From assembly GCA_965215505.1 (NCBI GenBank), contig OZ244065.1, positions 2,176,001 through 2,240,000 of the forward strand: DNA of 64,000 bases. Reading direction: 5' to 3'. The position numbers and the translations under genes were made by a program. Shown one piece after another: positions 38,060 through 48,684 of the stretch (positions are counted from its first letter, which is position 1; every line of letters begins with the position of its first letter). The notes below the pieces were generated by a model. The model saw nothing but the letters and a program-made list of their open reading frames with translations, had not been told where the DNA came from and ran no database searches. This stretch comes from Capsulimonadaceae bacterium (GTDB taxonomy: Bacteria; Armatimonadota; Armatimonadia; Armatimonadales; Capsulimonadaceae).

Positions 38060-39520
38060 ATGACCGCCCCATTACCGCCCGACGAGACCGAACGCCTGCG
38101 CGCCCTGTACGAGTGCAGCATCTTGGACACCGCGCCCGAGGAAGTGTTCGACGATATTACCCGCTTGGCCGCCCAGGTCTGCGGCGTGCCCATCGCCGCC
38201 GTTACCCTCATTGACGCGGAGCGGCAGTGGCTCAAATCCGTCGTGGGCCTGAGCGGCAGGGAAACTCCGCGCGATGTGGCCTTCTGCGCCCACACGATCC
38301 TCCAGGCGAATATTTTGGTCGTCCCCGACGCCCGCGCCGACCTCCGATTTGCCGACAACCCCCAGGTGACGGGGCCTCCACACATCCGCTTCTATGCGGG
38401 CGTGCCGCTGATCTCCGAGGAGGGACGTGCGCTCGGCTCCCTGTGCGTCATTGACACTCTTCCCAGGACTCTCACGCCGGACCAGGAGGCGACCCTGTGC
38501 CTGCTGTCGCGTCAGGTCTGTAGCCATCTCCGGGCGGCCCGCCGGGCCACTGAGCGGGAACGGGCCGAGGCCGCCCTCGTCCAGACCCATTCGGCGCTGC
38601 GGACGGTCCTGGAGAGCGCGCCCCTCATCCTCTACGCCGCCGACGCCGACGGGACGGTGACCCTGTCCGAGGGAAAGGGCCTGTCGGCGCTCGGGCTGGG
38701 GCCGAGCGATGCGGTCGGGCACTCCGTCTTCGAGTTCAGCGCGGGGGACACCGAGAACGAGACGAATATGCGCCGCGCATTGGCGGGCGAAGCGATTTCC
38801 TACGACGCCCGCGTGAACAGCGTGTGGCTGCACACTGAGGTGCGGCCCCTGCACAATGCGGACGGGACGCCCTCGGGCATCATCGGCGTCTGCCTGGATG
38901 TGACCGAGCGGATGCGGGCGGAGGAGCGGGTCAATGACCATGTGGTCATCCTGGAGTTCCAGGAGCTGCAAAAGAATGAGCTGGAGAAGGCGAACGCGGA
39001 ACTCGCGTCGCTCGCGACCACAGACGGGCTGACGGGCCTAAAAAATCATCGGGCTTTCCAGGAGAGGCTGGCGGAGGAGGTCAGCCGGAGCGCCCGCTAC
39101 GGGACGCCGCTGTCGCTGATCCTGCTCGATGTGGACCGATTCAAGCACTATAACGATGCTCACGGCCACCCGGCGGGGGATGCAGTCCTCATGGCGGTGG
39201 CGAGCATCCTCCAGCAGAGCGCGCGGGAGACGGATTTGGTCGCCCGATACGGGGGCGAGGAATTCGTGCTGATCCTGCCCCAGACCGACCTGGACGGGGC
39301 ATCGGCCTTCGCCGAGCGCCTGCGCGTCTCAGTCGAGGGCCATTCCTGGCCGGTGCGCGCCGTCACCGCCTCCTTCGGGGTGGCATCCCTGCGGCTGGAG
39401 GACTGCGGCTCGGACGTGATCGCCCGCGCGGACGAGGCGCTGTACCGGTCCAAGGCGGCGGGGCGGAACCGGGTGACGTCCTCAGCCGGGCCTTGCGGCC
39501 CCGTCGTCCGGCATCCGTGA
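38060..39520 (+). CDS. GAF-PAS-GGDEF diguanylate cyclase
   Basis: GAF (AFCAHTIL, RFYAGVPL), PAS, DGLTGL, RETD I-site, RYGGEEF. Confidence 0.92.
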   Translation: MTAPLPPDETERLRALYECSILDTAPEEVFDDITRLAAQVCGVPIAAVTLIDAERQWLKSVVGLSGRETPRDVAFCAHTILQANILVVPDARADLRFADNPQVTGPPHIRFYAGVPLISEEGRALGSLCVIDTLPRTLTPDQEATLCLLSRQVCSHLRAARRATERERAEAALVQTHSALRTVLESAPLILYAADADGTVTLSEGKGLSALGLGPSDAVGHSVFEFSAGDTENETNMRRALAGEAISYDARVNSVWLHTEVRPLHNADGTPSGIIGVCLDVTERMRAEERVNDHVVILEFQELQKNELEKANAELASLATTDGLTGLKNHRAFQERLAEEVSRSARYGTPLSLILLDVDRFKHYNDAHGHPAGDAVLMAVASILQQSARETDLVARYGGEEFVLILPQTDLDGASAFAERLRVSVEGHSWPVRAVTASFGVASLRLEDCGSDVIARADEALYRSKAAGRNRVTSSAGPCGPVVRHP

Positions 39521-40564
39521 CAGCTCCGCCTCGATCTGCCCGACGGTCGGCAGACTGTCCAGGAGGTCATCGGGGAGGGCGTCGGTGACGCGGAACCCGG
39601 CGACTCCGATGGGCGTGGCGTTGTTCCGCAGCGCGTATTCCACCGTGACCTGCTCGCGCGTCTTGCACAGGATCAGGCCCAGGCTCGGCGCGTCCGTCGC
39701 GTGGCGCATCAGGTCATCCACGGCGGACAGGTAGAAATTCATCTTGCCCGCGAACTCCGGCACGAACTCGGTCATCTTCAGGTCCACGACGACGAAGCAG
39801 CGCAGGCGCAGGTGGTAGAACAGAAGGTCGAGGTAATAGTCCTTGCCGCCGACCTCTAGGTGGTGCTGGCTCGCGACGAACGAAAACCCGGTGCCCATTT
39901 CCAGCAGGAACTTCTGGAGGTGTGCCAGCAGCCCGTGTTCAAGATGCCGCTCCTGGGCGTCCGGTCCCAGCGTGAGGAAGTCGAAGTTGTACGGGTCCTT
40001 CAAAATCTGCTGGGCCAGGTCCGACTGGGGTGGGGGCAGCGCGCGTGAGAAGTTCGTTAGCGCCTGGCCCTGACGCCCGTACAGGCCGCTCCCGATCTGG
40101 TGTTCCAGGACGGCCCGGCTCCAGCCGTGTTCATGCGCGGCACGGATATACCAGAGCCGCTGGTCAGCGTCTTTGACCCGGTCCAGCAGCCGAACGTGGT
40201 GGCCCCAGGGCAGCGGCGAATTGTGCAACAACTGTTGCACAATTGCGGAGTCGGGATAGGCTTCCGCGAACGCGCGCATGTATTTGAGGTTGCGCGGAGA
40301 AAAGCCCTCCACCCCTGGAAACGCCGCCTTTAGGTCCACCGCCAGGCGATCCACGACTTTCGCGCCCCAGCCGTGCCGCGCCTGCCGCTGCCGGACCTCA
40401 TCGCCGATCTGCCAGTAGAGCCAGACCACCTCGCGGCTGAGGGACAGGGCCGCCCGCACCTGTGCCGTCTGGATGCGGCCCTTGATGTCCGTGAGGAAGT
40501 CCGCGTACCCCTCGAAGCCTCGGGCGATCCCGCCGGCCTCCTCTTCAGTCTCTCCTTGATCCAT
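39482..40564 (-). CDS. YhcG/DUF1016 PD-(D/E)XK nuclease family protein
   Basis: LYWQIG, GFSPRNLKYMR, KDPYNFDFL, DLLFYHLRLRCFVVVDLK, GKMNFYL. Confidence 0.9.
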   Translation of the reverse strand: MDQGETEEEAGGIARGFEGYADFLTDIKGRIQTAQVRAALSLSREVVWLYWQIGDEVRQRQARHGWGAKVVDRLAVDLKAAFPGVEGFSPRNLKYMRAFAEAYPDSAIVQQLLHNSPLPWGHHVRLLDRVKDADQRLWYIRAAHEHGWSRAVLEHQIGSGLYGRQGQALTNFSRALPPPQSDLAQQILKDPYNFDFLTLGPDAQERHLEHGLLAHLQKFLLEMGTGFSFVASQHHLEVGGKDYYLDLLFYHLRLRCFVVVDLKMTEFVPEFAGKMNFYLSAVDDLMRHATDAPSLGLILCKTREQVTVEYALRNNATPIGVAGFRVTDALPDDLLDSLPTVGQIEAELSRMPDDGAARPG

Positions 40565-40800: not shown

Positions 40801-41787
40801 ATGGACTATGTGAAGCTCGGCAAGACCGGCCTCAAGGTTTCGCGCATCTGCCTCGGCTGCATGAGCTACGGCATCCCGGAGCGCGGCGCGCACCCGTGGT
40901 CGCTGGACGAGGAGGCAAGCCGGCCGTTCATCCAGCGCGCCCTGGAACTCGGCATCAACTTCTTTGACACCGCCAACGTCTACTCCGACGGCACCAGCGA
41001 GGAGATCACGGGCCGCGCCCTGCGCGACTTCGCCCGGCGCGAGGAGATGGTGATCGCCACCAAGGTACACGGGCGGATGCGGGCCGATTCCAACGGCGCG
41101 GGCCTGTCCCGCAAGGCGATCATGGCGGAGATAGACCACAGCCTCCAGCGACTGGGCACCGACTATGTGGACCTCTACCAGATCCACCGGTTCGATTCCG
41201 AGACACCCATCGAGGAGACTTTGGAGGCACTGCACGACGTGGTCAAGTCCGGCAAGGCGCGCTACATCGGCGCATCCTCCATGTATGCCTGGCAGTTCGC
41301 CAAGGCGCTGTACCTCGCGGACCGGCACGGGTGGACGCGGTTTGTCAGCATGCAGAACCACTATAACCTGCTCTACCGGGAGGAGGAGCGAGAGATGATG
41401 GGGCTGTGCCGTGAGGAGAGCATCGGCGTCATCCCCTGGAGTCCCCTGGCGCGTGGCCGTCTGGCCCGCCCCTGGGAGGAGCGGTCGGGGACCGAGCGGG
41501 CCGGGTCGGACCAGTTCGGCAAGACGCTTTATGTCCGGACGGAGGAGGCCGACCATAAAGTCGTTGACCGCGTGGGGGAGATCGCCGAGGCGCGCGACGT
41601 CCCGCGCGCCCAGGTCGCCCTGGCCTGGCTGCTGCAAGCGCCGGGCGTGACCGCCCCCATCGTCGGCGCGACGAAGACGCATCACCTACAGGACGCCGTT
41701 GCCGCCCTGTCCCTGACCCTCTCGCCCGAGGAGGTCACATCGCTCCAAGAGCCGTATGTGCCGCATCCAGTCCTTGGGTTCTCGTAG
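40801..41787 (+). CDS. Aldo/keto reductase (YajO-like)
   Basis: LKVSRICLGCMSYG, FFDTANVYS, GTDYVDLYQIHR, MQNHYNLLYREEERE. Confidence 0.92.
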   Translation: MDYVKLGKTGLKVSRICLGCMSYGIPERGAHPWSLDEEASRPFIQRALELGINFFDTANVYSDGTSEEITGRALRDFARREEMVIATKVHGRMRADSNGAGLSRKAIMAEIDHSLQRLGTDYVDLYQIHRFDSETPIEETLEALHDVVKSGKARYIGASSMYAWQFAKALYLADRHGWTRFVSMQNHYNLLYREEEREMMGLCREESIGVIPWSPLARGRLARPWEERSGTERAGSDQFGKTLYVRTEEADHKVVDRVGEIAEARDVPRAQVALAWLLQAPGVTAPIVGATKTHHLQDAVAALSLTLSPEEVTSLQEPYVPHPVLGFS

Positions 41788-41842
41788 GTATACTGCGTAG
41801 GTATACTAACGGCGTCGGCACATCAAAGGAGACAAACACGTT

Positions 41843-42316
41843 ATGGCGGAACTGGATCTGGCCGCGCAGCTACGCGCGACGACGGAGAGGGCCTACAGCA
41901 ACCTGGTCAACGACCTGAACGCGCTGGACGAGGAGAAGGCGAGCGGCAGCCCGGATACGGCACTGCGCCCGGCGATCAAGGTAGTGGCGGAGTGCGGGTC
42001 GGTCAACGGGCTTCTGGCGGAACTGGTGACGACCGGCACCGCGACGAGGCCGTCGCCGGAAGAGCGGGAGGTCTATTACGCCTCCATCACGACGCGCGCC
42101 GAGGCGCTGGCCGAGCTGGAGAAGGGGACGCAAAAGCTGTACGCGGCCATTGACGGCGTCGCCCCGGACCGCTGGGGCGAGACGGTGCCGACGCCTCTTG
42201 GCCCGATGACTGTCCTGGGGGCGGCAAACTTCGCCGCCCTGCACATGATGTACCATGACGGGCAGATCAACTACCTGCACATGCTGCACGGCGACACGGA
42301 GATGCACTGGACGTAG
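41843..42316 (+). CDS. DinB-family protein
   Basis: Helical protein ending HMMYHDGQINY; AAGGAG RBS. Confidence 0.7.
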   Translation: MAELDLAAQLRATTERAYSNLVNDLNALDEEKASGSPDTALRPAIKVVAECGSVNGLLAELVTTGTATRPSPEEREVYYASITTRAEALAELEKGTQKLYAAIDGVAPDRWGETVPTPLGPMTVLGAANFAALHMMYHDGQINYLHMLHGDTEMHWT

Positions 42317-42342
42317 GCGGCTGACGGCGGGCGCGGGGGCGG

Positions 42343-43413
42343 TCAGCGCCCCCGCGACCGACCGGCTTGGAGTGTGACGAGGCCCGTCCCATCGGGGTTC
42401 TCCACCAGCGCGGCCTCGACGGGCAGGAACTGCGGGACGACCCACAGCACGGTCCGCAGGTGTTCTGTCACCTGAGAGGTCGTCCAGCGGCTCTCGCCCG
42501 CCGTCAGCGCCATCGGCAGGACAAGCTGGTCCGCCAGATGCTCCTCGCAGGCCGCGCCCGTCTCCCACCACGCTTTGAAGGCGTGGCAGACCTCCTCGGC
42601 GACGGCTTCCATGCGCTTGCCGCGCTCGCCGATGGCGGAGAAACCCGCCAACCCGCCTTCGCACTCGGCGACCAGAAGAACGGCAGCCCCCGCCCCGACC
42701 GAGGGCGCTTCGCGCATCTCGGTGGATAGCTCCACCGGCAGGCGACCCACTTCCTGACGCACGGCGGCGACGCCTCTCTCAGCGACGGTCGGAGGCAGCC
42801 CTGATGTCACGACGAGGGCCGTCACGGCGCGCAATCCGCCCCGCTCCGTCAACGTGATAGGCGAAATCGCGGCGTTCCCCGCGACCTCGGCACTCACCGC
42901 CCCTCCCCCTTTAGGAAAGAACCCCGCCTTCGGCGACAGCAGAGAAGCGGCCAGGCCGTGCCGCGCCAGTGTCGGCAGATAGACGCGCTCCAGGTAGTCC
43001 GCCGTCGGCGCGTGCGAGACGTGCGTCCCGCCGGTGACGGTGACGCGGGAGGCGGCAGGGGCAAAGGCGAGCGGCATCAGGACGGTTTGCAGGACGAGGG
43101 CCGTCGCCCCCGCCGTGCCGATGGCGAAGTGGTAGACGCCGTGCGTCGGCGGTGCCTGTGGGGCGAAGCGGAGGCGGACCGACCCGATCTCCGCGCCTTC
43201 CAGCGAGGCCGCACACAGCTCGGCTGCGGCCTTGACCGAGGCAAGATGCTGGGGCTGGAGGCCGGGCCGGGCGCGGCCCGCGCGTATCCGCACGATCTCG
43301 ACGGGCCGCCCCGTCAGGGCCGATAGGGACAGGCTCGTCCGCAAAATCTGCCCGCCGCCCTCCCCGTGCGACCCGTCAATGGTGACGCTGGATTGTGTGT
43401 CTAAGTTCTTCAT
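42343..43413 (-). CDS. rtcA: RNA 3'-terminal phosphate cyclase
   Basis: DGSHGEGGGQILRTSLSLS, RPGLQPQHL, GGTH, EHLADQL, TEHLRT. Confidence 0.95.
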   Translation of the reverse strand: MKNLDTQSSVTIDGSHGEGGGQILRTSLSLSALTGRPVEIVRIRAGRARPGLQPQHLASVKAAAELCAASLEGAEIGSVRLRFAPQAPPTHGVYHFAIGTAGATALVLQTVLMPLAFAPAASRVTVTGGTHVSHAPTADYLERVYLPTLARHGLAASLLSPKAGFFPKGGGAVSAEVAGNAAISPITLTERGGLRAVTALVVTSGLPPTVAERGVAAVRQEVGRLPVELSTEMREAPSVGAGAAVLLVAECEGGLAGFSAIGERGKRMEAVAEEVCHAFKAWWETGAACEEHLADQLVLPMALTAGESRWTTSQVTEHLRTVLWVVPQFLPVEAALVENPDGTGLVTLQAGRSRGR

Positions 43414-43430
43414 GGCTGTCTTAGTATTCC

Positions 43431-43558
43431 CGTGCAGGCAGCGCGCCTATCCGAGACTTGTGCCCCTTCGGGGGCGGCAGGCGTCGGATCTTGGTGTTCG
43501 CTTTTGGAGACACGGACCGCCCGTGACCTCCCTTGATGGCGGCGCGCATGCATGCACG
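43431..43558 (-). ncRNA. Candidate ~128-nt structured RNA between tRNA-Arg and rtcA
   Basis: Ends pair (CGTGCA-t-GCA-t-GCGCGCC with GGCGCGC-TGC-c-TGCACG) and enclose two hairpins; no family recognised. Confidence 0.35.
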
Positions 43559-43561
43559 AAG

Positions 43562-43637
43562 TGGTGCTCCCGACAGGATTTGAACCTGTGGCCTCGACCG
43601 TCGCAGGATCGCGTTCTATCCGCTGAACTACGAGAGC
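43562..43637 (-). tRNA. tRNA-Arg(GCG)
   Basis: 76-nt cloverleaf: GCTCTCG/CGGGAGC, A20, anticodon loop CT-GCG-AC, TTCAAAT, encoded CCA. Confidence 0.85.
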
Positions 43638-43647
43638 AATTCGAAAA

Positions 43648-43718
43648 CTCCTCGACCCGGATTCGAACCAGGGCGAACGCATTAACAGTGCGTGATGCTG
43701 CCGCTACATCATCGAGGA
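43648..43718 (-). tRNA. tRNA-Asn(GTT)
   Basis: TCCTCGA/TCGAGGA, G73, ACGCA-CTGTTAA-TGCGT, TTCGAAT; no CCA. Confidence 0.85.
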
Positions 43719-43763
43719 TCACGGCCCAGCGGTCTGTCATGACCGCCGGACCAAGTTAGAGAA

Positions 43764-43836
43764 TCGTGGCGGTGGGAATTGAACCCACGATTTACAGGGT
43801 ATGAGCCTGCCGCCTTACCAGCTTGGCTTCGCCACA
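43764..43836 (-). tRNA. tRNA-Met(CAT), atypical
   Basis: TGTGGCG/CGCCACG-A, GCAGG-CTCATAC-CCTGT, GTGGG-TTCAATT-CCCAC; no CCA. Confidence 0.8.
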
Positions 43837-43889
43837 ATGCCGTCTCTCGCTGCCCCTACCAGTCAGGGGGCAGGGGCAGAGTCCGGACG

Positions 43890-44123
43890 TCAGATGTCTG
43901 ACGCCCGGCGCGTGTGCTTGTAGTCCTGGCTGCGCTCGCGGACATATTCCACGGGCTGCCGCGCCCCGGCCCCGGTGACCTCCCAGCCGTCCTGGGTGAT
44001 TCCGTCCTCCGTCAGCCGCAGGAACCGCCCGACGACGGCGTGCTTCTCCGGTATCCAGGCCATCTGGTGCGCTGGCCCCCGCCGGAGCCGGCACTGGACG
44101 TAGTACTGTGTGTAGCCGGACAT
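43890..44123 (-). CDS. Small hypothetical protein (77 aa)
   Basis: MSGYTQYYVQCRLRR...RRASDI*; strong RBS GAAGGAG. Confidence 0.7.
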   Translation of the reverse strand: MSGYTQYYVQCRLRRGPAHQMAWIPEKHAVVGRFLRLTEDGITQDGWEVTGAGARQPVEYVRERSQDYKHTRRASDI

Positions 44124-44149
44124 GATGTTTCTCCTTCCCTTTCTGACTG

Positions 44150-44782
44150 TTACACGGCGGCCCGCGCGACCAGCGCCTGGCTGATCGCGGCGGGTACTTC
44201 GGCGTAACCGGCGACGCTCATCGAGAACGACGCCCGCCCCTGCGTCAGCGAGCGCAGGTCGGTCGTGTAGCCGAACGTCTCGGCGACCGGGACGGTGGCC
44301 CGCACGACGGCCGTGCCGTCGGCCAATGCGCTCTGGCCCAGAAGATGCCCGCGACGCCGGGCGATGTCCCCCAGCACCGGCCCGACGAAGCCGCCCGGCG
44401 TCAGCACTTCGACCAGGCCGATCGGCTCGATGAGGATCATCGGCGCGTGCTTGCAGGCATCCAGGAACGCGAGACGCCCCGCCTCGGCGAAGGCGTAGTC
44501 GGTCGAGTCCACCGCGTGCCAGCTCCCGTCCACGACCGCCACCCGCACGTCCACCACGGGGTAGCCCGCCAGGACGCCGCCGGCCATCGCACTCCTGACG
44601 CCCTTCGCGATGCTCGGGAGGAAGATGCGGGGGATGACGCCGCCCACGAGGCCGCTGACGAACTCGAACCCCGCCCCCGCCTCCAGGGCTTCCAGCATAA
44701 GGACGCAGTACGCCTTCTGGCCTTTGCCGCCGTTCTGCTTGTCCACGCGGCCTTCGCCGCGATATCTGGTCTGGTCGGTCAT
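44150..44782 (-). CDS. Stand-alone elongation factor G domain IV-V protein (no GTPase domain)
   Basis: KQNGGKGQ, GGVIP, GYPVVDV, DGSWHAVDS, EPI, GDIARRRG, FGYTTDLRSLTQGRA; own RBS GAAGGAG, with a tRNA directly upstream. Confidence 0.88.
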   Translation of the reverse strand: MTDQTRYRGEGRVDKQNGGKGQKAYCVLMLEALEAGAGFEFVSGLVGGVIPRIFLPSIAKGVRSAMAGGVLAGYPVVDVRVAVVDGSWHAVDSTDYAFAEAGRLAFLDACKHAPMILIEPIGLVEVLTPGGFVGPVLGDIARRRGHLLGQSALADGTAVVRATVPVAETFGYTTDLRSLTQGRASFSMSVAGYAEVPAAISQALVARAAV

Positions 44783-44815
44783 GGTCTTTCTCCTTCGTTC
44801 CCGGCGTTCGAGTGA

Positions 44816-44888
44816 AGCGGAAGGCGGGGCTTGAACCCGCAGCCTTCATGGTGGCACCGTGACGCTCCGCCGATTGAGCTACTTCCGC
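44816..44888 (-). tRNA. tRNA-Gly(GCC)
   Basis: GCGGAAG/CTTCCGC, U73, TCACG-GTGCCAC-CATGA, TTCAAGC; no CCA. Confidence 0.8.
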
Positions 44889-44925
44889 ATTGACTTAGTT
44901 CCGCGTGTCCTGCTCGTGGCAGGGA

Positions 44926-45000
44926 TGGAGATGGTCGGAATCGAACCGACGGCCTCCTGTTCTTCAGACAGGCGCTGCTACCGGACTGAGCTACATCTCC
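44926..45000 (-). tRNA. tRNA-Phe(GAA)
   Basis: GGAGATG/CATCTCC-A, CCTGT-CTGAAGA-ACAGG, TTCGATT; no CCA. Confidence 0.85.
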
Positions 45001-45016
45001 ACAATCAACAGCCGAG

Positions 45017-45053
45017 ACAAACAAAACGGCCTCTCGCGTAGTGCGGGAGGCCG
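45017..45053 (-). terminator. Intrinsic terminator C, upstream of tRNA-Phe
   Basis: GGCCTCCCGC-actac-GCGAGAGGCC followed by GTTTTGTTTGT. Confidence 0.75.
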
Positions 45054-45082
45054 GAGGGTTCATGGTGTGGCAGGATCGCTTG

Positions 45083-45247
45083 CTACAGCAAACGCTCCCT
45101 CCCCCATAAACCCTTCGCCCCCGCCATAAAGCGGGCACCGCCCATCGCCTGGACCTGACCTAACCCCGGCGTGACACGGCTCAGAATCAGGCGGCTTCCC
45201 GCCTGGTTCGCTTGAGCCGGTATGAAATTATTATTTGTCGCTATCAT
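45083..45247 (-). CDS. Putative leader peptide C (54 aa)
   Basis: MIATNNNFIPAQANQAGSRLILSRVTPGLGQVQAMGGARFMAGAKGLWGRERLL*; contains a G-rich segment complementary to the 5' arm of terminator C. Confidence 0.55.
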   Translation of the reverse strand: MIATNNNFIPAQANQAGSRLILSRVTPGLGQVQAMGGARFMAGAKGLWGRERLL

Positions 45248-45258
45248 TGCTGTTTAGG

Positions 45259-45267
45259 AGTATACCA
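45259..45267 (-). promoter_or_regulatory. Extended -10 promoter (internal P2)
   Basis: TGG-TATACT, 11 nt upstream of the leader C ATG, in an AT-rich stretch; no clear -35. Confidence 0.5.
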
Positions 45268-45337
45268 CGGTTTCATGGCAAATAACCATAAAGTTTACGG
45301 AGCTATCAATTTTATTTTCATGGCCGGTTGATCTGGA

Positions 45338-45409
45338 TGGGGACGCAGGGAGTTGAACCCTGACTTCGCGCTTAAAAGGCGCACACACTGACCGTTATGT
45401 TACATCCCC
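45338..45409 (-). tRNA. tRNA-Lys(TTT)
   Basis: GGGGATG/CGTCCCC-A, TGCGC-CTTTTAA-GCGCG, CAGGG-TTCAACT-CCCTG; no CCA. Confidence 0.82.
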
Positions 45410-45425
45410 GTCTTCTGACGCCGCC

Positions 45426-45464
45426 ACAAAAAGATCGGCCCCGCGCTGTCTGCACGGGACCGAT
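45426..45464 (-). terminator. Intrinsic terminator B, upstream of tRNA-Lys
   Basis: ATCGGTCCCGTGC-agaca-GCGCGGGGCCGAT followed by CTTTTTGT. Confidence 0.78.
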
Positions 45465-45488
45465 TGTGTCTGTCTCTTTTCCTCTTCC

Positions 45489-45641
45489 CTAAAGCGGTGG
45501 GAGGAGCCGCCGATGAGGCGGCGACACGATCGGTCCCAGTATGAAGTTTTTGAGAAAGCCTGAAGCCGGGCGTAGCAGAGCCACGGCCAGGCGGTGACCC
45601 GGCATCATCTTTGTATTGCGTTTCGTCGTCAGGCTGGTCAT
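45489..45641 (-). CDS. Putative leader peptide B (50 aa)
   Basis: MTSLTTKRNTKMMPGHRLAVALLRPASGFLKNFILGPIVSPPHRRLLPPL*; contains GGGACCGAT, the exact complement of the terminator B 5' arm. Confidence 0.55.
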   Translation of the reverse strand: MTSLTTKRNTKMMPGHRLAVALLRPASGFLKNFILGPIVSPPHRRLLPPL

Positions 45642-45676
45642 TAGGTTTCGTCTCGGGTCAAGTAGGCGGGCGAATG

Positions 45677-45721
45677 CAAACACAAAACGCCCGCCTTCGG
45701 CACGGTGGCAGAAGGCGGGCG
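45677..45721 (-). terminator. Intrinsic terminator A
   Basis: CGCCCGCCTTC...GAAGGCGGGCG (11-bp perfect stem) followed by TTTTGTGTTTG. Confidence 0.8.
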
Positions 45722-45757
45722 CTCGGAAAAAGGTCTTCCTGCGGGCTGGGCGCGAGG

Positions 45758-45874
45758 TCACTCGCGCCAGCCACCTCCTGCGGGGATAGGGCGACGCCCC
45801 TGGAAACCGAATGAGGGTTTCAGGGTGCCGCCGACCATCGGGCCGTTATTCGGTTGTTTCAGGGGCGAGTTCAT
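45758..45874 (-). CDS. Putative leader peptide A (38 aa)
   Basis: MNSPLKQPNNGPMVGGTLKPSFGFQGRRPIPAGGGWRE*; GCAGGAGGTGG can pair with CCGCCTTCTGC of terminator A. Confidence 0.6.
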   Translation of the reverse strand: MNSPLKQPNNGPMVGGTLKPSFGFQGRRPIPAGGGWRE

Positions 45875-45884
45875 CGTGGGGGAC

Positions 45885-45914
45885 ACTCTACCCGACGCGC
45901 ACTGCCGTTGTCAA
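45885..45914 (-). promoter_or_regulatory. Sigma70 promoter P1 of the tRNA/rtcA locus
   Basis: TTGACA (45914-45909), 18 bp, TAGAGT; leader A ATG 10 nt downstream (near-leaderless). Confidence 0.6.
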
Positions 45915-45983
45915 GAGCAGACGGAAAGTTTTTCGCGGCGGCAGGAATTCCGCCGTGCGTGCGGTATAGTCTAGGGGAAAGAA

Positions 45984-48527
45984 ATGTCACCTAACGCCCC
46001 CACGAAGCCTCATTCCAAGCGCCCCCCGGCCGCACTGGCGACTGTCGTCCTGTTGTCGCTGCTGTCCTGGATGGCGCTGGCCGGTCCCGCCGCGCCGGAT
46101 GCTGTCGCGATCCGGCCTCTTGACAAGGCCGAAGCGCGCGGTGTCAATTACCGGCATCAGATCCAGCCGCTTCTGGCAAGCCGCTGCGGCCAGTGCCACG
46201 GCGGGGCCGCGCCGTCGGGGGGCCTCAGCGTCGTGTCACTGGCCGCGCTCCTGCGGGGCGGCGCGCACGGGTTGGACATAGTGGTCGGCAAGCCCGACGA
46301 GAGCGCGCTGATCCAGTATGTGCGCGGGCTGAGGACGCCCCGGATGCCGATGAGCGGCCCCGCCCTCTCGGTAGACGAGGTCCACTTGCTGCGCGAATGG
46401 GTTTTCGCCGGGGCGCGTGACGACGCGGTGGCAGGTGGCGCGGCGGGCGTCCAAGCGCGTCCCATCGCTCAGTTGCCAATCGAGGACGAGTCGGGATTGA
46501 GTCTCGCCGAGCTGCGGGTCAAGCACCTGGCCCGGCTGCCCCGCGCGCCTGCCGTCCCGGTCGTCAGTGCGCCCGCCTTCAACGAGATCGACCGCTTTAT
46601 CGCGGCGAAGTGGCGGGAAAAGAAATTCCCCACGCCGCCGGTCTGCGACGATAATGCCTTCGTGCGGCGGGTCTATCTAGACGTGGTCGGCGTCATCCCA
46701 ACGACCGCGCAAGCGCTGGCCTTTGTGCAGGACAGGACTCCCGGCAAACGAACGCGCCTCGTGGACGGTCTGTTGGCCCGTGATGACGACTACGCAGCCA
46801 ATTGGACTCCCTTCTGGGAGGACGCGCTGGCCTCCAACGGCGCGCACCAGGGCGGGGCCGGGTCACGCCCCAACCTGCGGTCCTGGCTTGCCGAGAACCT
46901 GCGGCACAACCGGCCCTATGATGAGATGGTCGCCGAACTGATCGACCCCACTTCTAGCGGCCCGACGGCCCCGCTGGCGCGCGGCTGGATACAGAACGCC
47001 GACCACACCGAGACGGCCCAGAGCGCGGCGTATGTCGCCCAGGTCTTCATGGGCACGGCGGTCAAGTGCGCCTCCTGCCACAACCACTTCCTGAACCCCG
47101 AGTGGCCCCAGAAGAAGTTCATGGGCTATGCCAGCTACTTTACGCCCCAGAACATGGAGGTGATCCGGTGCGAGGTGCATGAAGGCGAGTTCGTCCCGCC
47201 CACCTTCCTGTTCGACCAGCCGAGCGCGCGCAATGCCGCCGCCCACACGCCGCTCGATCAGGACCACCGCCTGCGTCAAGTTTCGCGGCTGATCGTGGAC
47301 CCCGAAAACCCCCGCTTCGCGACCTGTATCGTCAACCGCCTTTGGAAGCGCTACTTCGGCCTGGGCCTGGTCGAGCCGGCCGACGACTTCCGGGCGGAGG
47401 GCCGCGCTCCGAGCCACCCGGCCCTGCTGTCCTGGCTGGCCGATGATTTCATGCGCCACGGCTACGACCTGAAGCACACGATCCGGCTGATGCTGACCAG
47501 CCGCACCTATCAGCTCCGCTATGACCCGCGCCTGGCCGACACGTTCAGCGCCGCCGCCCCGGACGCCCCGCGCTTTTACCGCTCCCCCACCCTGCGCCGC
47601 CTGACCGAGGAGCAGCTTCTGGACAGCGTGAACGTCGCCATCGGCAACACGGGTGCGCCGCGCGCTTATTTGGACGGCGACTCGACCGCCCTTTCGCGCG
47701 CCCTCGGCAAGCCCGCCGCCCGTAACGAAGTTTCGACATCGCGCTCCGATGATGTCGCCGTCGTGCAGGCTCTGGAACTCCTGAACGGCGGGGAGTTCAA
47801 CCGCCGCGTCGCACTTGGAACGCTGGACCGGGAGTTGTCGGAGGAGCCGGAGTGGCCGCGCATCGTCAGCCGCGCTTATTGGGCGACACTGGGCCGCGCG
47901 CCGACTTCTAAAGAACTCGGGGCCGGCAACCAGTTTTTAGAAGCCGCACCGCCCATCCCGCCGAGCAGTCAGACCCCAACCGAGGCCATGTGGTGGGAGG
48001 ACGGCCCGCCCGCCGGGACGATGCTGCAAGGGCCGTGGCAGATAACCTCGGGCCTCGTCTACTCCGGCAAACAGGCCCACACCGCGCCCATCATGGCGGG
48101 CGCACAGCAGCACTACTTTCTGGGCGCGGCCACGCCGCTCTCCGTCGGGATGGGTGATACGCTGTTTACCTACGCTTATCTTGACCCGAAGGCCATGCCG
48201 CGCGAGGTCATGCTTCAGTGGAACGACGGCCTCTGGGAGCATCGGGCGTTCTGGGGCGAAGACCTGATCAACTTCGGCACGACGGCCACAACAAGCCGTC
48301 GGCGAATGGGCGACCTGCCCGCACCGGGAAAATGGGTGCGCCTGGAGGTCGCCGCCGACGCCGTGGGTCTGGCCGGGCACGAGATCGGTGGGATGTCTTT
48401 CGACCAGTTTGACGGGCGTGTCACGTTCGACCACAGCGGCGTGGTCCACGCCGTCCCGCCGCGCCCGGCCATCGTGGATATGCTGTGGGCGTTGACGGTC
48501 AGCCCGGAGTTCCAGTATATCCGGTGA
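45984..48527 (+). CDS. Planctomycete-type cytochrome c + DUF1549/DUF1553 (PSD1) protein
   Basis: CGQCH haem motif, FVRRVYLDVVG, CASCHNH, VNRLWKRYFGLGLV, PSHPALLSWLA, SPEFQY. Confidence 0.88.
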   Translation: MSPNAPTKPHSKRPPAALATVVLLSLLSWMALAGPAAPDAVAIRPLDKAEARGVNYRHQIQPLLASRCGQCHGGAAPSGGLSVVSLAALLRGGAHGLDIVVGKPDESALIQYVRGLRTPRMPMSGPALSVDEVHLLREWVFAGARDDAVAGGAAGVQARPIAQLPIEDESGLSLAELRVKHLARLPRAPAVPVVSAPAFNEIDRFIAAKWREKKFPTPPVCDDNAFVRRVYLDVVGVIPTTAQALAFVQDRTPGKRTRLVDGLLARDDDYAANWTPFWEDALASNGAHQGGAGSRPNLRSWLAENLRHNRPYDEMVAELIDPTSSGPTAPLARGWIQNADHTETAQSAAYVAQVFMGTAVKCASCHNHFLNPEWPQKKFMGYASYFTPQNMEVIRCEVHEGEFVPPTFLFDQPSARNAAAHTPLDQDHRLRQVSRLIVDPENPRFATCIVNRLWKRYFGLGLVEPADDFRAEGRAPSHPALLSWLADDFMRHGYDLKHTIRLMLTSRTYQLRYDPRLADTFSAAAPDAPRFYRSPTLRRLTEEQLLDSVNVAIGNTGAPRAYLDGDSTALSRALGKPAARNEVSTSRSDDVAVVQALELLNGGEFNRRVALGTLDRELSEEPEWPRIVSRAYWATLGRAPTSKELGAGNQFLEAAPPIPPSSQTPTEAMWWEDGPPAGTMLQGPWQITSGLVYSGKQAHTAPIMAGAQQHYFLGAATPLSVGMGDTLFTYAYLDPKAMPREVMLQWNDGLWEHRAFWGEDLINFGTTATTSRRRMGDLPAPGKWVRLEVAADAVGLAGHEIGGMSFDQFDGRVTFDHSGVVHAVPPRPAIVDMLWALTVSPEFQYIR

Positions 48528-48537
48528 CGAAGCACGA

Positions 48538-48684
48538 GCAGACGGAGGACGAGTGAATGAATTCACTCGCTTCGGGGAGAAGCGTCCAGGGGACGCGAGA
48601 ACGGCAAAGGCAGTCAGCACGTCTTCTGTCCCCTGGACAGGTCTTACAGGAGCGAGTGAATTCATTCACTCGTCCTCCGTCTGC
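48538..48684. repeat. REPIN/MITE-like element, copy A
   Basis: Perfect 34-bp terminal inverted repeat, plus inner GTCCAGGGGAC/GTCCCCTGGAC. Confidence 0.85.

Follow-up and report, generated by a model that had tools for sequence, protein, structure and literature searches.

We analyzed a 64,000-nucleotide (nt) window from the genome of a Capsulimonadaceae bacterium (assembly GCA_965215505.1, contig OZ244065.1, positions 2,176,001 to 2,240,000); "the window" denotes this whole stretch, and coordinates refer to it unless another record is named. Our subject is a minus-strand locus at 42343-45914 in which six tRNA genes are interspersed with genes for a truncated elongation factor G (mini EF-G), a 77-residue protein that we call orf77, and the RNA 3'-terminal phosphate cyclase RtcA, behind a series of putative leader open reading frames (ORFs) and terminators. 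ARAGORN finds exactly six tRNA genes in the 64-kb window, all on the minus strand between 43562 and 45409. The host genome is one contig of 6.18 Mb with 66.5% G+C, 63 tRNA genes, and a tmRNA. The locus is chromosomal and has ordinary flanks, with genes for an aldo-keto reductase, DinB, and PSCyt/PSD1 proteins (Pfam), and the G+C content of its protein genes is host-like. An earlier sequence-only reading had inventoried the locus, and ARAGORN, Rfam, Pfam, a terminator and promoter scan, and reading of the sequence together recovered every listed element, in the order given and on the minus strand. Its interpretation, a normally silent rescue module triggered by stalled ribosomes, is partly supported. 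The features, in the direction of transcription, are as follows.

45885-45914, minus strand: promoter P1, sigma-70-like, TTGACA (45914-45909), 18-nt spacer, TAGAGT (45890-45885), 10 of 12 matches
45758-45874, minus strand: leader A, ORF of 38 codons that carries the invariant 3' block ATCCCCGCAGGAGGTGGC; a hairpin loop holds its stop codon
45677-45722, minus strand: terminator A, 12-bp GC-rich stem followed by TTTTGTGTTT (terminator scan)
45489-45641, minus strand: leader B, 50-codon leader-peptide ORF, MTSLTTKRNTKMM...NFILGPIVSPPHRRLLPPL and stop
45523-45537, minus strand: antiterminator 5' strand GGGACCGATCGTGTC, the GPIV codons inside the leader B ORF, pairing with 45470-45456
45424-45470, minus strand: antiterminator 3' strand (45470-45456) overlapping terminator B (stem 45464-45434, T tract 45433-45424)
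45338-45409, minus strand: tRNA-Lys(UUU), extra copy, 42 of 75 positions identical to the housekeeping copy (ARAGORN, Rfam)
45253-45268, minus strand: candidate promoter P2, extended -10 TGgTATACT (45267-45259) in the AT-rich block GTGGTATACTCCTAAA
45083-45247, minus strand: leader C, 54-codon ORF starting MIATNNN, AAT AAT AAT at 45235-45227
45017-45053, minus strand: terminator C, CGGCCTC...GAGGCCG (45053-45027) and T tract TTTTGTTTGT (reading of the sequence; not reported by the scan)
44923-45001, minus strand: tRNA-Phe(GAA), extra copy, G37 (ARAGORN, Rfam)
44816-44888, minus strand: tRNA-Gly(GCC), extra copy (ARAGORN, Rfam)
44150-44782, minus strand: mini EF-G, 210 residues, domains IV and V only (Pfam EFG_IV 3e-29, EFG_C 2e-24), strong Shine-Dalgarno sequence
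43890-44123, minus strand: orf77, 77 residues, tRNA-array marker (profile and synteny searches), strong Shine-Dalgarno sequence
43763-43837, minus strand: tRNA-Met(CAU), elongator-like or Ile2-like, not initiator-type (ARAGORN, Rfam)
43648-43718, minus strand: tRNA-Asn(GUU), extra copy (ARAGORN, Rfam)
43562-43637, minus strand: tRNA-Arg(GCG), extra copy, CCA encoded (ARAGORN, Rfam)
43414-43561, minus strand: structured spacer between tRNA-Arg and rtcA, 148 nt, fold z = -3.5, 0 of 200 shuffles as good
42343-43413, minus strand: rtcA, RNA 3'-terminal phosphate cyclase, sole copy in the genome (Pfam RTC 1.4e-76)

The gaps between these same-strand genes are short (26-148 nt) and no terminator is predicted after terminator C, an arrangement consistent with a single transcript that would be cut at the tRNAs.

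Extra tRNAs and a family of arrays

The Rfam tRNA model scores all six tRNAs at 52.6-66.9 bits, well above its gathering score of 29, and so agrees with ARAGORN on the tRNA set. None is the only copy of its isoacceptor, since each has a housekeeping copy elsewhere in the genome; all six anticodons recur outside the locus, and the array contributes no new one. Supernumerary tRNAs that duplicate existing anticodons are a trait of the tRNA arrays known as L-arrays. Array and housekeeping copies share 42-53 of 73-79 positions (56-70% identity), and the array tRNAs are 92-97% identical to the corresponding array tRNAs of a congener. The anticodon loop is unlike that of the housekeeping copy in four of the six (Arg, Met, Gly, and Phe). 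In bacterial initiator tRNAs, positions 1 and 72 are mismatched and three G:C pairs stand at the base of the anticodon stem. The array tRNA-Met, with an anticodon stem of GCAGG/CCUGU and U1.G72, lacks these hallmarks, whereas a Met copy at 1145180 in the genome begins with C and has the stem UCGGG/CCCGA with three initiator-like G:C pairs. The sequence-only reading had taken the array tRNA-Met for fMet-type, a claim that fails here, and its link to fMet-cleaving VapC is therefore without basis at this locus.

With six tRNAs in 1.85 kb, the locus reaches the density of at least two tRNA genes per kb used to define a tRNA array unit and falls short of the minimum of 20 tRNA genes in the same definition (PMC4758250), so that it is best described as a reduced derivative of arrays that qualify. 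Such arrays are present in its kin. We used orf77 as a probe across 401 genomes of the phylum. Of 17 sampled genomes of the genus, 10 have it, as do both sampled genomes of the sister genus, one genome of the order's other family, and a more distant genome (40% identity); another four weak matches, which contain in-frame stops, were set aside. Together with relatives in phages, this spread amounts to the patchy, horizontal-type distribution that also characterizes L-arrays. In the approximately 12 kb examined around each of 14 kin copies of orf77, a tRNA lies within 1 kb of the gene in 10, and most copies sit inside long arrays. The array in genome G321 comprises 15 tRNAs, ordered as Lys, Glu, Gln, His, a spacer, Phe, Gly, mini EF-G, orf77, Leu, Leu, Met, Asn, Ile, Asp, Arg, and rtcA. 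A metagenome contig (L129) has the same order with 13 tRNAs, mini EF-G, orf77, and rtcA. Larger arrays occur in G184 (19 tRNAs) and G277 (21 tRNAs in approximately 6.9 kb). Reduction is also seen among kin: G414 has lost terminator B and the run from Lys to His, and G417 keeps a leader, two tRNAs, and rtcA. Overall, our locus is a trimmed member of a lineage-specific accessory tRNA array family.

The composition of the fuller arrays bears on one explanation of the locus, namely that its tRNAs are made constitutively or from P2 and boost the decoding of rare codons, for example in horizontally acquired genes, with the protein genes as passengers. The kin arrays are rich in tRNAs for NAN codons and A/U-ending boxes (Lys-UUU, Glu-UUC, Gln-UUG, Leu-UAA, Leu-UAG, Ile-UAU, Asn, Asp, Tyr, and His), which could matter in a host of 66.5% G+C, and codon compensation is how phage tRNAs have classically been understood (PMC10264068). 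Such a supplement is nevertheless very unlikely: no new anticodon is added to the genome, terminators stand before the tRNAs, and codon supply leaves unexplained the RNA-repair enzymes that lie in or are attached to the arrays of several genomes.

The array proteins: mini EF-G, orf77, and RtcA

The protein encoded between tRNA-Gly and orf77 was proposed to be an EF-G without its GTPase, and this holds. Its only Pfam matches are EFG_IV and EFG_C; the G domain and domains II and III expected of an EF-G are absent, and the protein is accordingly a homologue of EF-G domains IV-V rather than an EF-G. Its residues 10-205 align, with just one gap of one residue, to positions 494-688 of Thermus thermophilus EF-G (691 residues), and the protein is 51% identical to the full-length EF-G of its own genome. 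A protein search returned, among the matches listed, 35 proteins composed of domains IV-V only (P0001-P0033, P0036, and P0037), of 178-225 residues and 53-93% identical to the query, some of them on contigs of up to 1.3 Mb; the remaining listed matches are mostly C-terminal pieces of full-length EF-G on short contigs. In a FastTree phylogeny of 65 sequences, 35 fall in one clade with a support of 1.0 and a stem of 0.38 substitutions per site. This clade consists of our protein, P0001-P0033, and P0037, and P0036 groups among ordinary EF-G fragments.

The tip loops of domain IV of EF-G contact the codon-anticodon helix in the A site, and in Thermus EF-G we take the tip residues at the decoding center to be Q500, G502, G503, and H573. 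Both loops are kept in the mini EF-G, as KQNGGKGQ and SWHAVDS, and the clade as a whole follows the pattern KQxGG.GQ and SxHxVDS, with the H, D, and S each present in 35 of 35 sequences, the Q in 30, and the GG pair in 33-35. The ratio of nonsynonymous to synonymous substitution rates (dN/dS) is 0.14-0.28 for this gene. At all four mini-EF-G loci examined, a tRNA array that also holds orf77 encloses the gene; three of these four arrays, and those of three further kin, are followed by rtcA, so that the synteny on which the idea of one module depended is conserved.

A scan of genome contigs, in a collection that leaves out records near our genome, listed 80 loci for the mini EF-G, all at 52% identity or less and not sorted into mini and full-length proteins. 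The scan of metagenome contigs likewise listed 80; among the three examined (L129, L130, and L135), only L129 encodes a mini EF-G, and the rest of the list is at 51% identity or less. L130 and L135, with open frames of 715 and 732 residues, were ruled out. In viral contigs, the single-protein scan gave no mini EF-G and the family alignment gave one locus, a full-length EF-G of 692 residues. Searching phage records yielded 25 matches, none above 45% identity and not sorted by protein length. Our literature search found no publication on natural stand-alone proteins of EF-G domains IV-V; a Stenotrophomonas phage paper mentions an ORF with an EFG_IV domain, in no context that bears on the mini EF-G.

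The small orf77 protein has no Pfam match and matches PHROG 25356, a family of unassigned function in PHROG. It is under purifying selection, with a dN/dS of 0.11-0.16. A profile built from 18 sequences recovered 2,520 cluster representatives at E <= 1e-3 and 948 at E <= 1e-10, and those listed are nearly all 60-120 residues long. The family keeps the C-terminal motif ERSQDYKHTRxASDI. A tblastn search found it in 23 phage records, from Caulobacter jumbo phages, Sinorhizobium phiM12-like phages, and one uncultured phage of 595 kb. In all six annotated records inspected, orf77 starts 200 nt or less after a same-strand tRNA gene, and in the four Caulobacter phages among them this tRNA closes a tRNA run. 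In the unannotated huge phage a tRNA-Leu is 620 nt from orf77, and on both of two IMG/VR contigs (358 kb and 157 kb) the gene lies beside 12 and 28 tRNAs, respectively. That orf77 tracks tRNA arrays in this manner argues for a role tied to the array tRNAs. The predicted fold, a small beta-rich domain with C-terminal helices (predicted local distance difference test score, pLDDT, 77), matched nothing significantly in the PDB (best E 0.16, template modeling score 0.32, to bL19-like and Hfq-like chains) and found only its own uncharacterized phage relatives in BFVD. One weak lead came from the Atlas (score 0.76, in a cluster that is 76% viral). In Anabaena, the hypothetical protein all4315 is described near tRNA arrays (PMC8421152). 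The orf77 profile was not found in three cyanobacterial genomes or in 121 genomes of a cyanobacterial order, and we therefore draw no link to all4315, which itself was not compared.

Two further observations concern the phage neighborhoods of orf77. In the Sinorhizobium phages phiM12 (L210, 3737-3937) and phiN3 (L226, 2347-2526), a tiny UBA-domain protein annotated as "elongation factor Ts-like" lies just upstream of the phage tRNAs and the orf77 homologue, a fragment of a translation factor that parallels the mini EF-G. On the 157-kb IMG/VR contig (L127; 4463-4807 and 8820-8974), the array near the orf77 homologue includes a tmRNA (tag ADIELLAA), a CUA-anticodon tRNA, and a tRNA-like gene whose anticodon was called as four bases.

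RtcA is a member of its family by the Pfam matches RTC (257 bits, cut-off 27) and RTC_insert (59.8 bits, cut-off 23). It aligns to residues 5-339 of E. coli RtcA (chain 1qmh_A), with H318 at position 309, which we take to be the nucleophilic histidine His309 of the E. coli enzyme, and its gene has a dN/dS of 0.17. The structured spacer before rtcA is only 21 nt long in G414, so the structure is not needed everywhere. Besides tRNA, Rfam found no family, Y-RNA included, in 41500-46500 (weak chance-level matches only, at E up to 1). In G321, the gene directly after rtcA (L020, 8268-8849) encodes a 193-residue P-loop kinase (Pfam Zeta_toxin 1.1e-11, AAA_33 5e-08) that could be an end-healing enzyme of the polynucleotide-kinase type; it is not found at the corresponding place after rtcA in the window.

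Other RNA-repair genes occupy the gaps of kin arrays (Pfam): RtcB, complete in G277 and in two pieces 2.2 kb apart in G184 (L029, 6498-7385 and 9622-10095); an RNA ligase, seen in G277 and G210, that carries a PHA02142 OB domain; and a TROVE/Ro60 protein in G112. The split of the array-linked RtcB might reflect a frameshift or pseudogene, an inserted element, or an intein-like insertion. Two of the four kin orf77 copies that have no nearby tRNA directly follow a 336-residue ORF whose N-terminus resembles, by sequence match, the RNA ligases of other arrays on which Pfam was run. Another orf77 copy without a nearby tRNA, in the congener G301 (L025, 4787-6010), stands behind a 408-residue protein with a PcfJ-like domain (6.8e-11).

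Our genome has a TROVE gene at 1.683 Mb and an RtcB gene at 0.248 Mb. It also contains a second island with a leader and terminator at its head, at 5.944-5.948 Mb (G000:C1, approximately 5944300-5948339; L221). This island opens with a TTGACA-18-TATTAT promoter, a 73-codon leader ORF that resembles leader B of the sister genus, and a similar terminator (5944451-5944486), after which follow tRNA-Tyr, a T4 Rnl1-type ligase, a PHA02142-type ligase, RtcB, and tRNA-Ile(UAU).

Promoters, leader ORFs, and terminators

When our sequence is aligned with G321 and L129, the promoter -10, the three leaders, and the three terminators are conserved, at 71-81% identity. The P1 -10 block GGGTAGAGTGT is invariant in the three. 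The leader A ORF has the same length in all three, and its invariant 3' block also occurs in G417; its dN/dS of 0.5-0.97 indicates no constraint at the protein level. Inside this ORF, in the invariant block and just before the stop-codon hairpin, lies an invariant and perfect Shine-Dalgarno-like sequence, AGGAGGTG (45775-45792). The T tract of terminator A is weak in G321. The terminator scan reported 5 sites in all, compared with 2.7 +/- 1.7 in shuffles, which is not beyond chance, so that the support for terminators A, B, and C is their conservation.

Leader B stands apart from leader A. Its ORF is kept in all five loci in which the module was found, across two genera, with 50, 70, 70, 91, and 89 codons; the length difference within our genus is a 57-nt indel that preserves the frame. 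Its C-terminus is conserved as ..YQDNFIxGPIV..PPA and stop, or in the wider form as ..GPIV..PPA/L and stop, its dN/dS is 0.55, and in our sequence it ends 24 nt before the terminator stem. The codons of the GPIV motif, GGGACCGAT.GTGTC (45537-45523), are complementary to GACAC.ATCGGTCCC (45470-45456), which takes in the first nine bases of terminator B together with its 5' flank. The antiterminator helix (alignment columns 24-38 with 105-119) and the 13-pair terminator B found by the scan (columns 111-123 with 129-141) share columns 111-119 and are mutually exclusive. Across the five sequences, 96% of the antiterminator cells are paired, with two compensatory pairs, and 95.4% of the terminator cells, with one; sliding the partner by 1-3 columns as a control lowers the pairing to 25-49%. 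Covariation is thus present in a small sample, at a level that shuffles do not mark as significant, and RNAalifold predicts the antiterminator helix unprompted.

We also folded the leaders thermodynamically with a ribosome footprint masked codon by codon. For G321 and L129 the switch is clear: the antiterminator has the lowest energy, except with a ribosome on codons 53-63 (G321) or 53-65 (L129) of 70, where the terminator takes over. The predicted default of leader B without translation is read-through in two of three models. The codons of leader B read T-K-R-N/D-T-K in the three sequences of our genus and not in G410 or G346. These data make leader B a credible leader-peptide attenuator that, on the modeled folds, would open when translation of the leader is slow or absent.

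The P2 block GTGGTATACTCCTAAA recurs exactly in five places (our locus, G321, L129, G410, and G346) and as a variant in G414. The P2 site listed by the scan was replaced by the extended -10 TGgTATACT as the better candidate. Leader C follows it directly. Its ORF is kept in our locus, G321, L129, and G410 (54-59 codons) and in G346 (64 codons), with only the start read in G414, and the Asn-rich beginning is found in six loci as NNN, NNN, NNN, NSN, SNN, and NDS. The sister-genus version of this ORF ends in ..GTAIVS and reuses an anti-strand and terminator of the leader B type. Terminator C is conserved in our locus, G321, L129, and G414 and partly in L022.

These arrangements might also be read as a row of independent genes, with leaders A, B, and C as separate small-protein or RNA genes, the terminators as gene ends, and the downstream genes starting elsewhere. 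Terminator A forms at every modeled ribosome position (probability 0.93-1.00, three sequences), the leader ORFs stay open in all kin, the conserved C-terminus of leader B could mean a functional peptide, and P2 stands directly before leader C. We nonetheless consider this account quite unlikely. The scan finds no promoter-like site between terminator B and tRNA-Lys or between terminator C and tRNA-Phe from which the downstream genes could start, and the leader B module heads a tRNA run in five of five loci. In addition, GGGACCGAT.GTGTC and its complement are conserved at the nucleotide level with compensatory changes, as an RNA switch predicts. The dN/dS of the leader ORFs is high (0.5-0.97).

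Proposed working and related systems

The explanation that we favor, and to which we give somewhat better than even chances, is that a phage-type array, spread horizontally, is present here as a reduced chromosomal copy, kept as a terminator-gated backup for translational stress and controlled by attenuation at leader B. Transcription would start at P1 and at the internal extended -10 promoter P2 and, in normal growth, would stop at the intrinsic terminators (A, B, and C) that precede the first tRNA and tRNA-Phe. Ribosomes that finish the 50-codon leader B would cover the GPIV codons and, because these codons are the 5' strand of the antiterminator, terminator B would fold and the array would stay off. 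Where translation of leader B is slow, stalled early, or absent, the GPIV strand could pair with the 5' arm of terminator B and allow read-through. The longer transcript would provide spare Lys, Phe, Gly, Met, Asn, and Arg tRNAs along with mini EF-G, orf77, and RtcA, with the coding pieces probably freed by RNase P and RNase Z cuts at the tRNAs. The spare tRNAs would then replace damaged ones, so that translation could continue after tRNA damage or other translational stress, and RtcA, judging by the known activities of its family, may cyclize 3'-phosphate ends for RtcB and Rnl ligases encoded elsewhere in the genome.

Several observations weigh against this proposal. In our own leader B the modeled switch is weaker: the terminator already has the lowest energy when no ribosome is present, and among the ribosome positions sampled (every second codon) just those at codons 1-7, 11, 15, and 27 let the antiterminator win, in a model of thermodynamics only that has no kinetics. 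Leader B lacks a Shine-Dalgarno sequence in all five loci, though mini EF-G and orf77 have strong ones. With only five sequences, the observed covariation scores were reached in 60 of 500 and 26 of 500 shuffles, which is not significant. The sequence-only reading had placed the operon behind attenuators; leader B does have the anatomy of a ribosome-sensing one, but leader A shows no switch, with no alternative to terminator A in three of three sequences under ribosome masking, and leader C shows a modeled switch in only one of three (G321). Leader B could matter only if terminator A, standing upstream without a switch, leaked or were bypassed. Mini EF-G is rare: it is present in 3 of the 71 genomes of the order, and the phylum sample yielded it in 2 of 401. 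The array is smaller by at least seven tRNAs than that of L129 and by nine than that of G321, and the RtcB gene of the second island (5946792-5948227) lies in two reading frames, its pieces approximately 130 nt apart; these tRNA losses and the divided RtcB could signify decay.

Decay is the core of another explanation, in which the locus is cargo, a phage-derived or otherwise mobile island of tRNAs and RNA repair that is being lost, the terminators only silence burdensome foreign tRNAs, and the locus plays no regulated part in physiology. Its patchy presence (orf77 in 10 of 17 genomes of the genus, mini EF-G in 3 of 71 of the order), the stepwise deletions that leave six tRNAs here against 13-15 in the nearest kin with further reduction in G414 and G417, and the two-frame RtcB all agree with this, and the authors of the Anabaena study discussed below hold that silencing favors the fixation of such arrays (PMC8421152). 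We regard it as unlikely, however. Mini EF-G, orf77, and rtcA are under purifying selection (dN/dS 0.11-0.28), the catalytic histidine of RtcA is kept, as are the domain IV tip residues of mini EF-G over 35 sequences, and the leaders, P2, and the antiterminator are conserved in two genera, which mere silencing does not require.

The backup proposal resembles several known systems. Ribosome-mediated attenuators are known from the trp, his, and pheA leaders and from the leaders of antibiotic-inducible ABCF resistance genes. As in these, a short ORF precedes an intrinsic terminator, with an antiterminator that depends, here in the model, on ribosome position. Unlike them, our locus would control tRNAs together with translation and repair factors, and leader B has no clear single run of regulatory codons. 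We found no precedent for a leader-peptide attenuator on a tRNA array in a limited literature search.

Among RNA-repair operons, RtcR-controlled rtcBA of E. coli and rsr-yrlBA-rtcBA of Salmonella (cited in PMC8421152 as its reference 85) are established examples, and TROVE proteins are present in kin arrays as well. PrfH is paired with RtcB2 (PMC9304027). In these systems, as at our locus, an Rtc-family repair enzyme is associated with a factor-like protein with the potential to recognize a damaged or stalled ribosome. The differences are that rtcA has no adjacent rtcB here, that 41500-46500 contains no Y-RNA, and that the factor-like protein derives from EF-G and not from a release factor. 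In a bolder version of the proposal, unlikely but not negligible in our estimation, the locus is a self-contained circuit for translation emergencies: the leader peptide would gauge the state of the ribosomes and open the terminator, releasing nuclease-insensitive tRNAs, a mini EF-G that enters the A site, and an orf77 that binds or protects tRNA. The domain IV tip of mini EF-G would enter the empty or damaged A site of stalled ribosomes as a protein mimic of tRNA and might act with RtcA and the RtcB and Rnl ligases of the genome, as PrfH does with RtcB2. If so, phage and bacterial arrays would have in common a so-far unnamed protein cofactor, and the supply of bacterial tRNAs could be regulated in cis by attenuation.

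T4 Rnl1 and Pnkp counter the anticodon nuclease PrrC, and the same enzyme families as in the kits of jumbo and T4-like phages are found in the kin arrays and the second island. Large phages also have the orf77 family in common with our locus, as seen in Caulobacter and Sinorhizobium phages and in IMG/VR jumbo contigs. Unlike the phage kits, the locus is chromosomal with ordinary flanks and protein genes of host-like G+C, and it has RtcA attached instead of Pnkp. The tRNA sets of jumbo phages are described as supplemented by RtcB, Rnl1, Rnl2, and TROVE proteins (Iyer et al. 2021, PMC7824862). Phage tRNAs have been proposed as a counter to anticodon nucleases (PMC10264068), and mycobacterial arrays were called a putative anti-defense system in 2026 (PMC12803027). 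Spare tRNA arrays are increasingly viewed as tools against tRNA-cleaving toxins and immune nucleases.

The closest bacterial parallel is the trn operon of Anabaena sp. PCC 7120, which is described as horizontally moving, silent, induced by ribosome-targeting antibiotics, and co-regulated with rtcB (PMC8421152, Santamaria-Gomez et al. 2021). Its control is by the repressor TrcR, through direct repeats at the promoter (PMC8421152, PMC10272220). Like that L-array, ours has supernumerary tRNAs that add copies and not anticodons, a patchy and horizontal distribution, and neighbors in RNA processing and translation, which include rtcB in the Anabaena case. It differs in that the gates are intrinsic terminators and leader ORFs rather than TrcR, in having only six tRNAs, and in its mini EF-G, of which the available part of the PMC8421152 account makes no mention. 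The sequence-only reading knew of no described system with this combination, but precedents exist in the stress-induced Anabaena arrays tied to rtcB and in the jumbo-phage tRNAs with RtcB, Rnl1, Rnl2, and TROVE. Silent, stress-induced arrays tied to RNA repair are established from Anabaena, and the enzyme kit is established from jumbo phages. New here are the putative cis-acting leader-peptide gate, the mini EF-G clade, and orf77 as a marker common to phage and bacterial arrays. Control of a bacterial array is known for one cyanobacterium only, by a repressor, and our locus offers a second, cis-acting candidate logic. Either the orf77 family, with its approximately 2,500 cluster representatives, or the mini EF-G could be a new translation or tRNA-protection factor.

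Two features of the window lie outside the array. Genes for nucleases of the YhcG/DUF1016 type are common in mobile or defense contexts, and one with a PD-(D/E)XK domain is present at 39482-40564, approximately 1.8 kb past rtcA (Pfam 3.4e-60 and 2.8e-42). On the other side, just after the PSCyt/PSD1 gene, a 57-nt inverted repeat with arms 88% complementary and 33 nt apart (48538-48684) generates look-alike ORFs on both strands.

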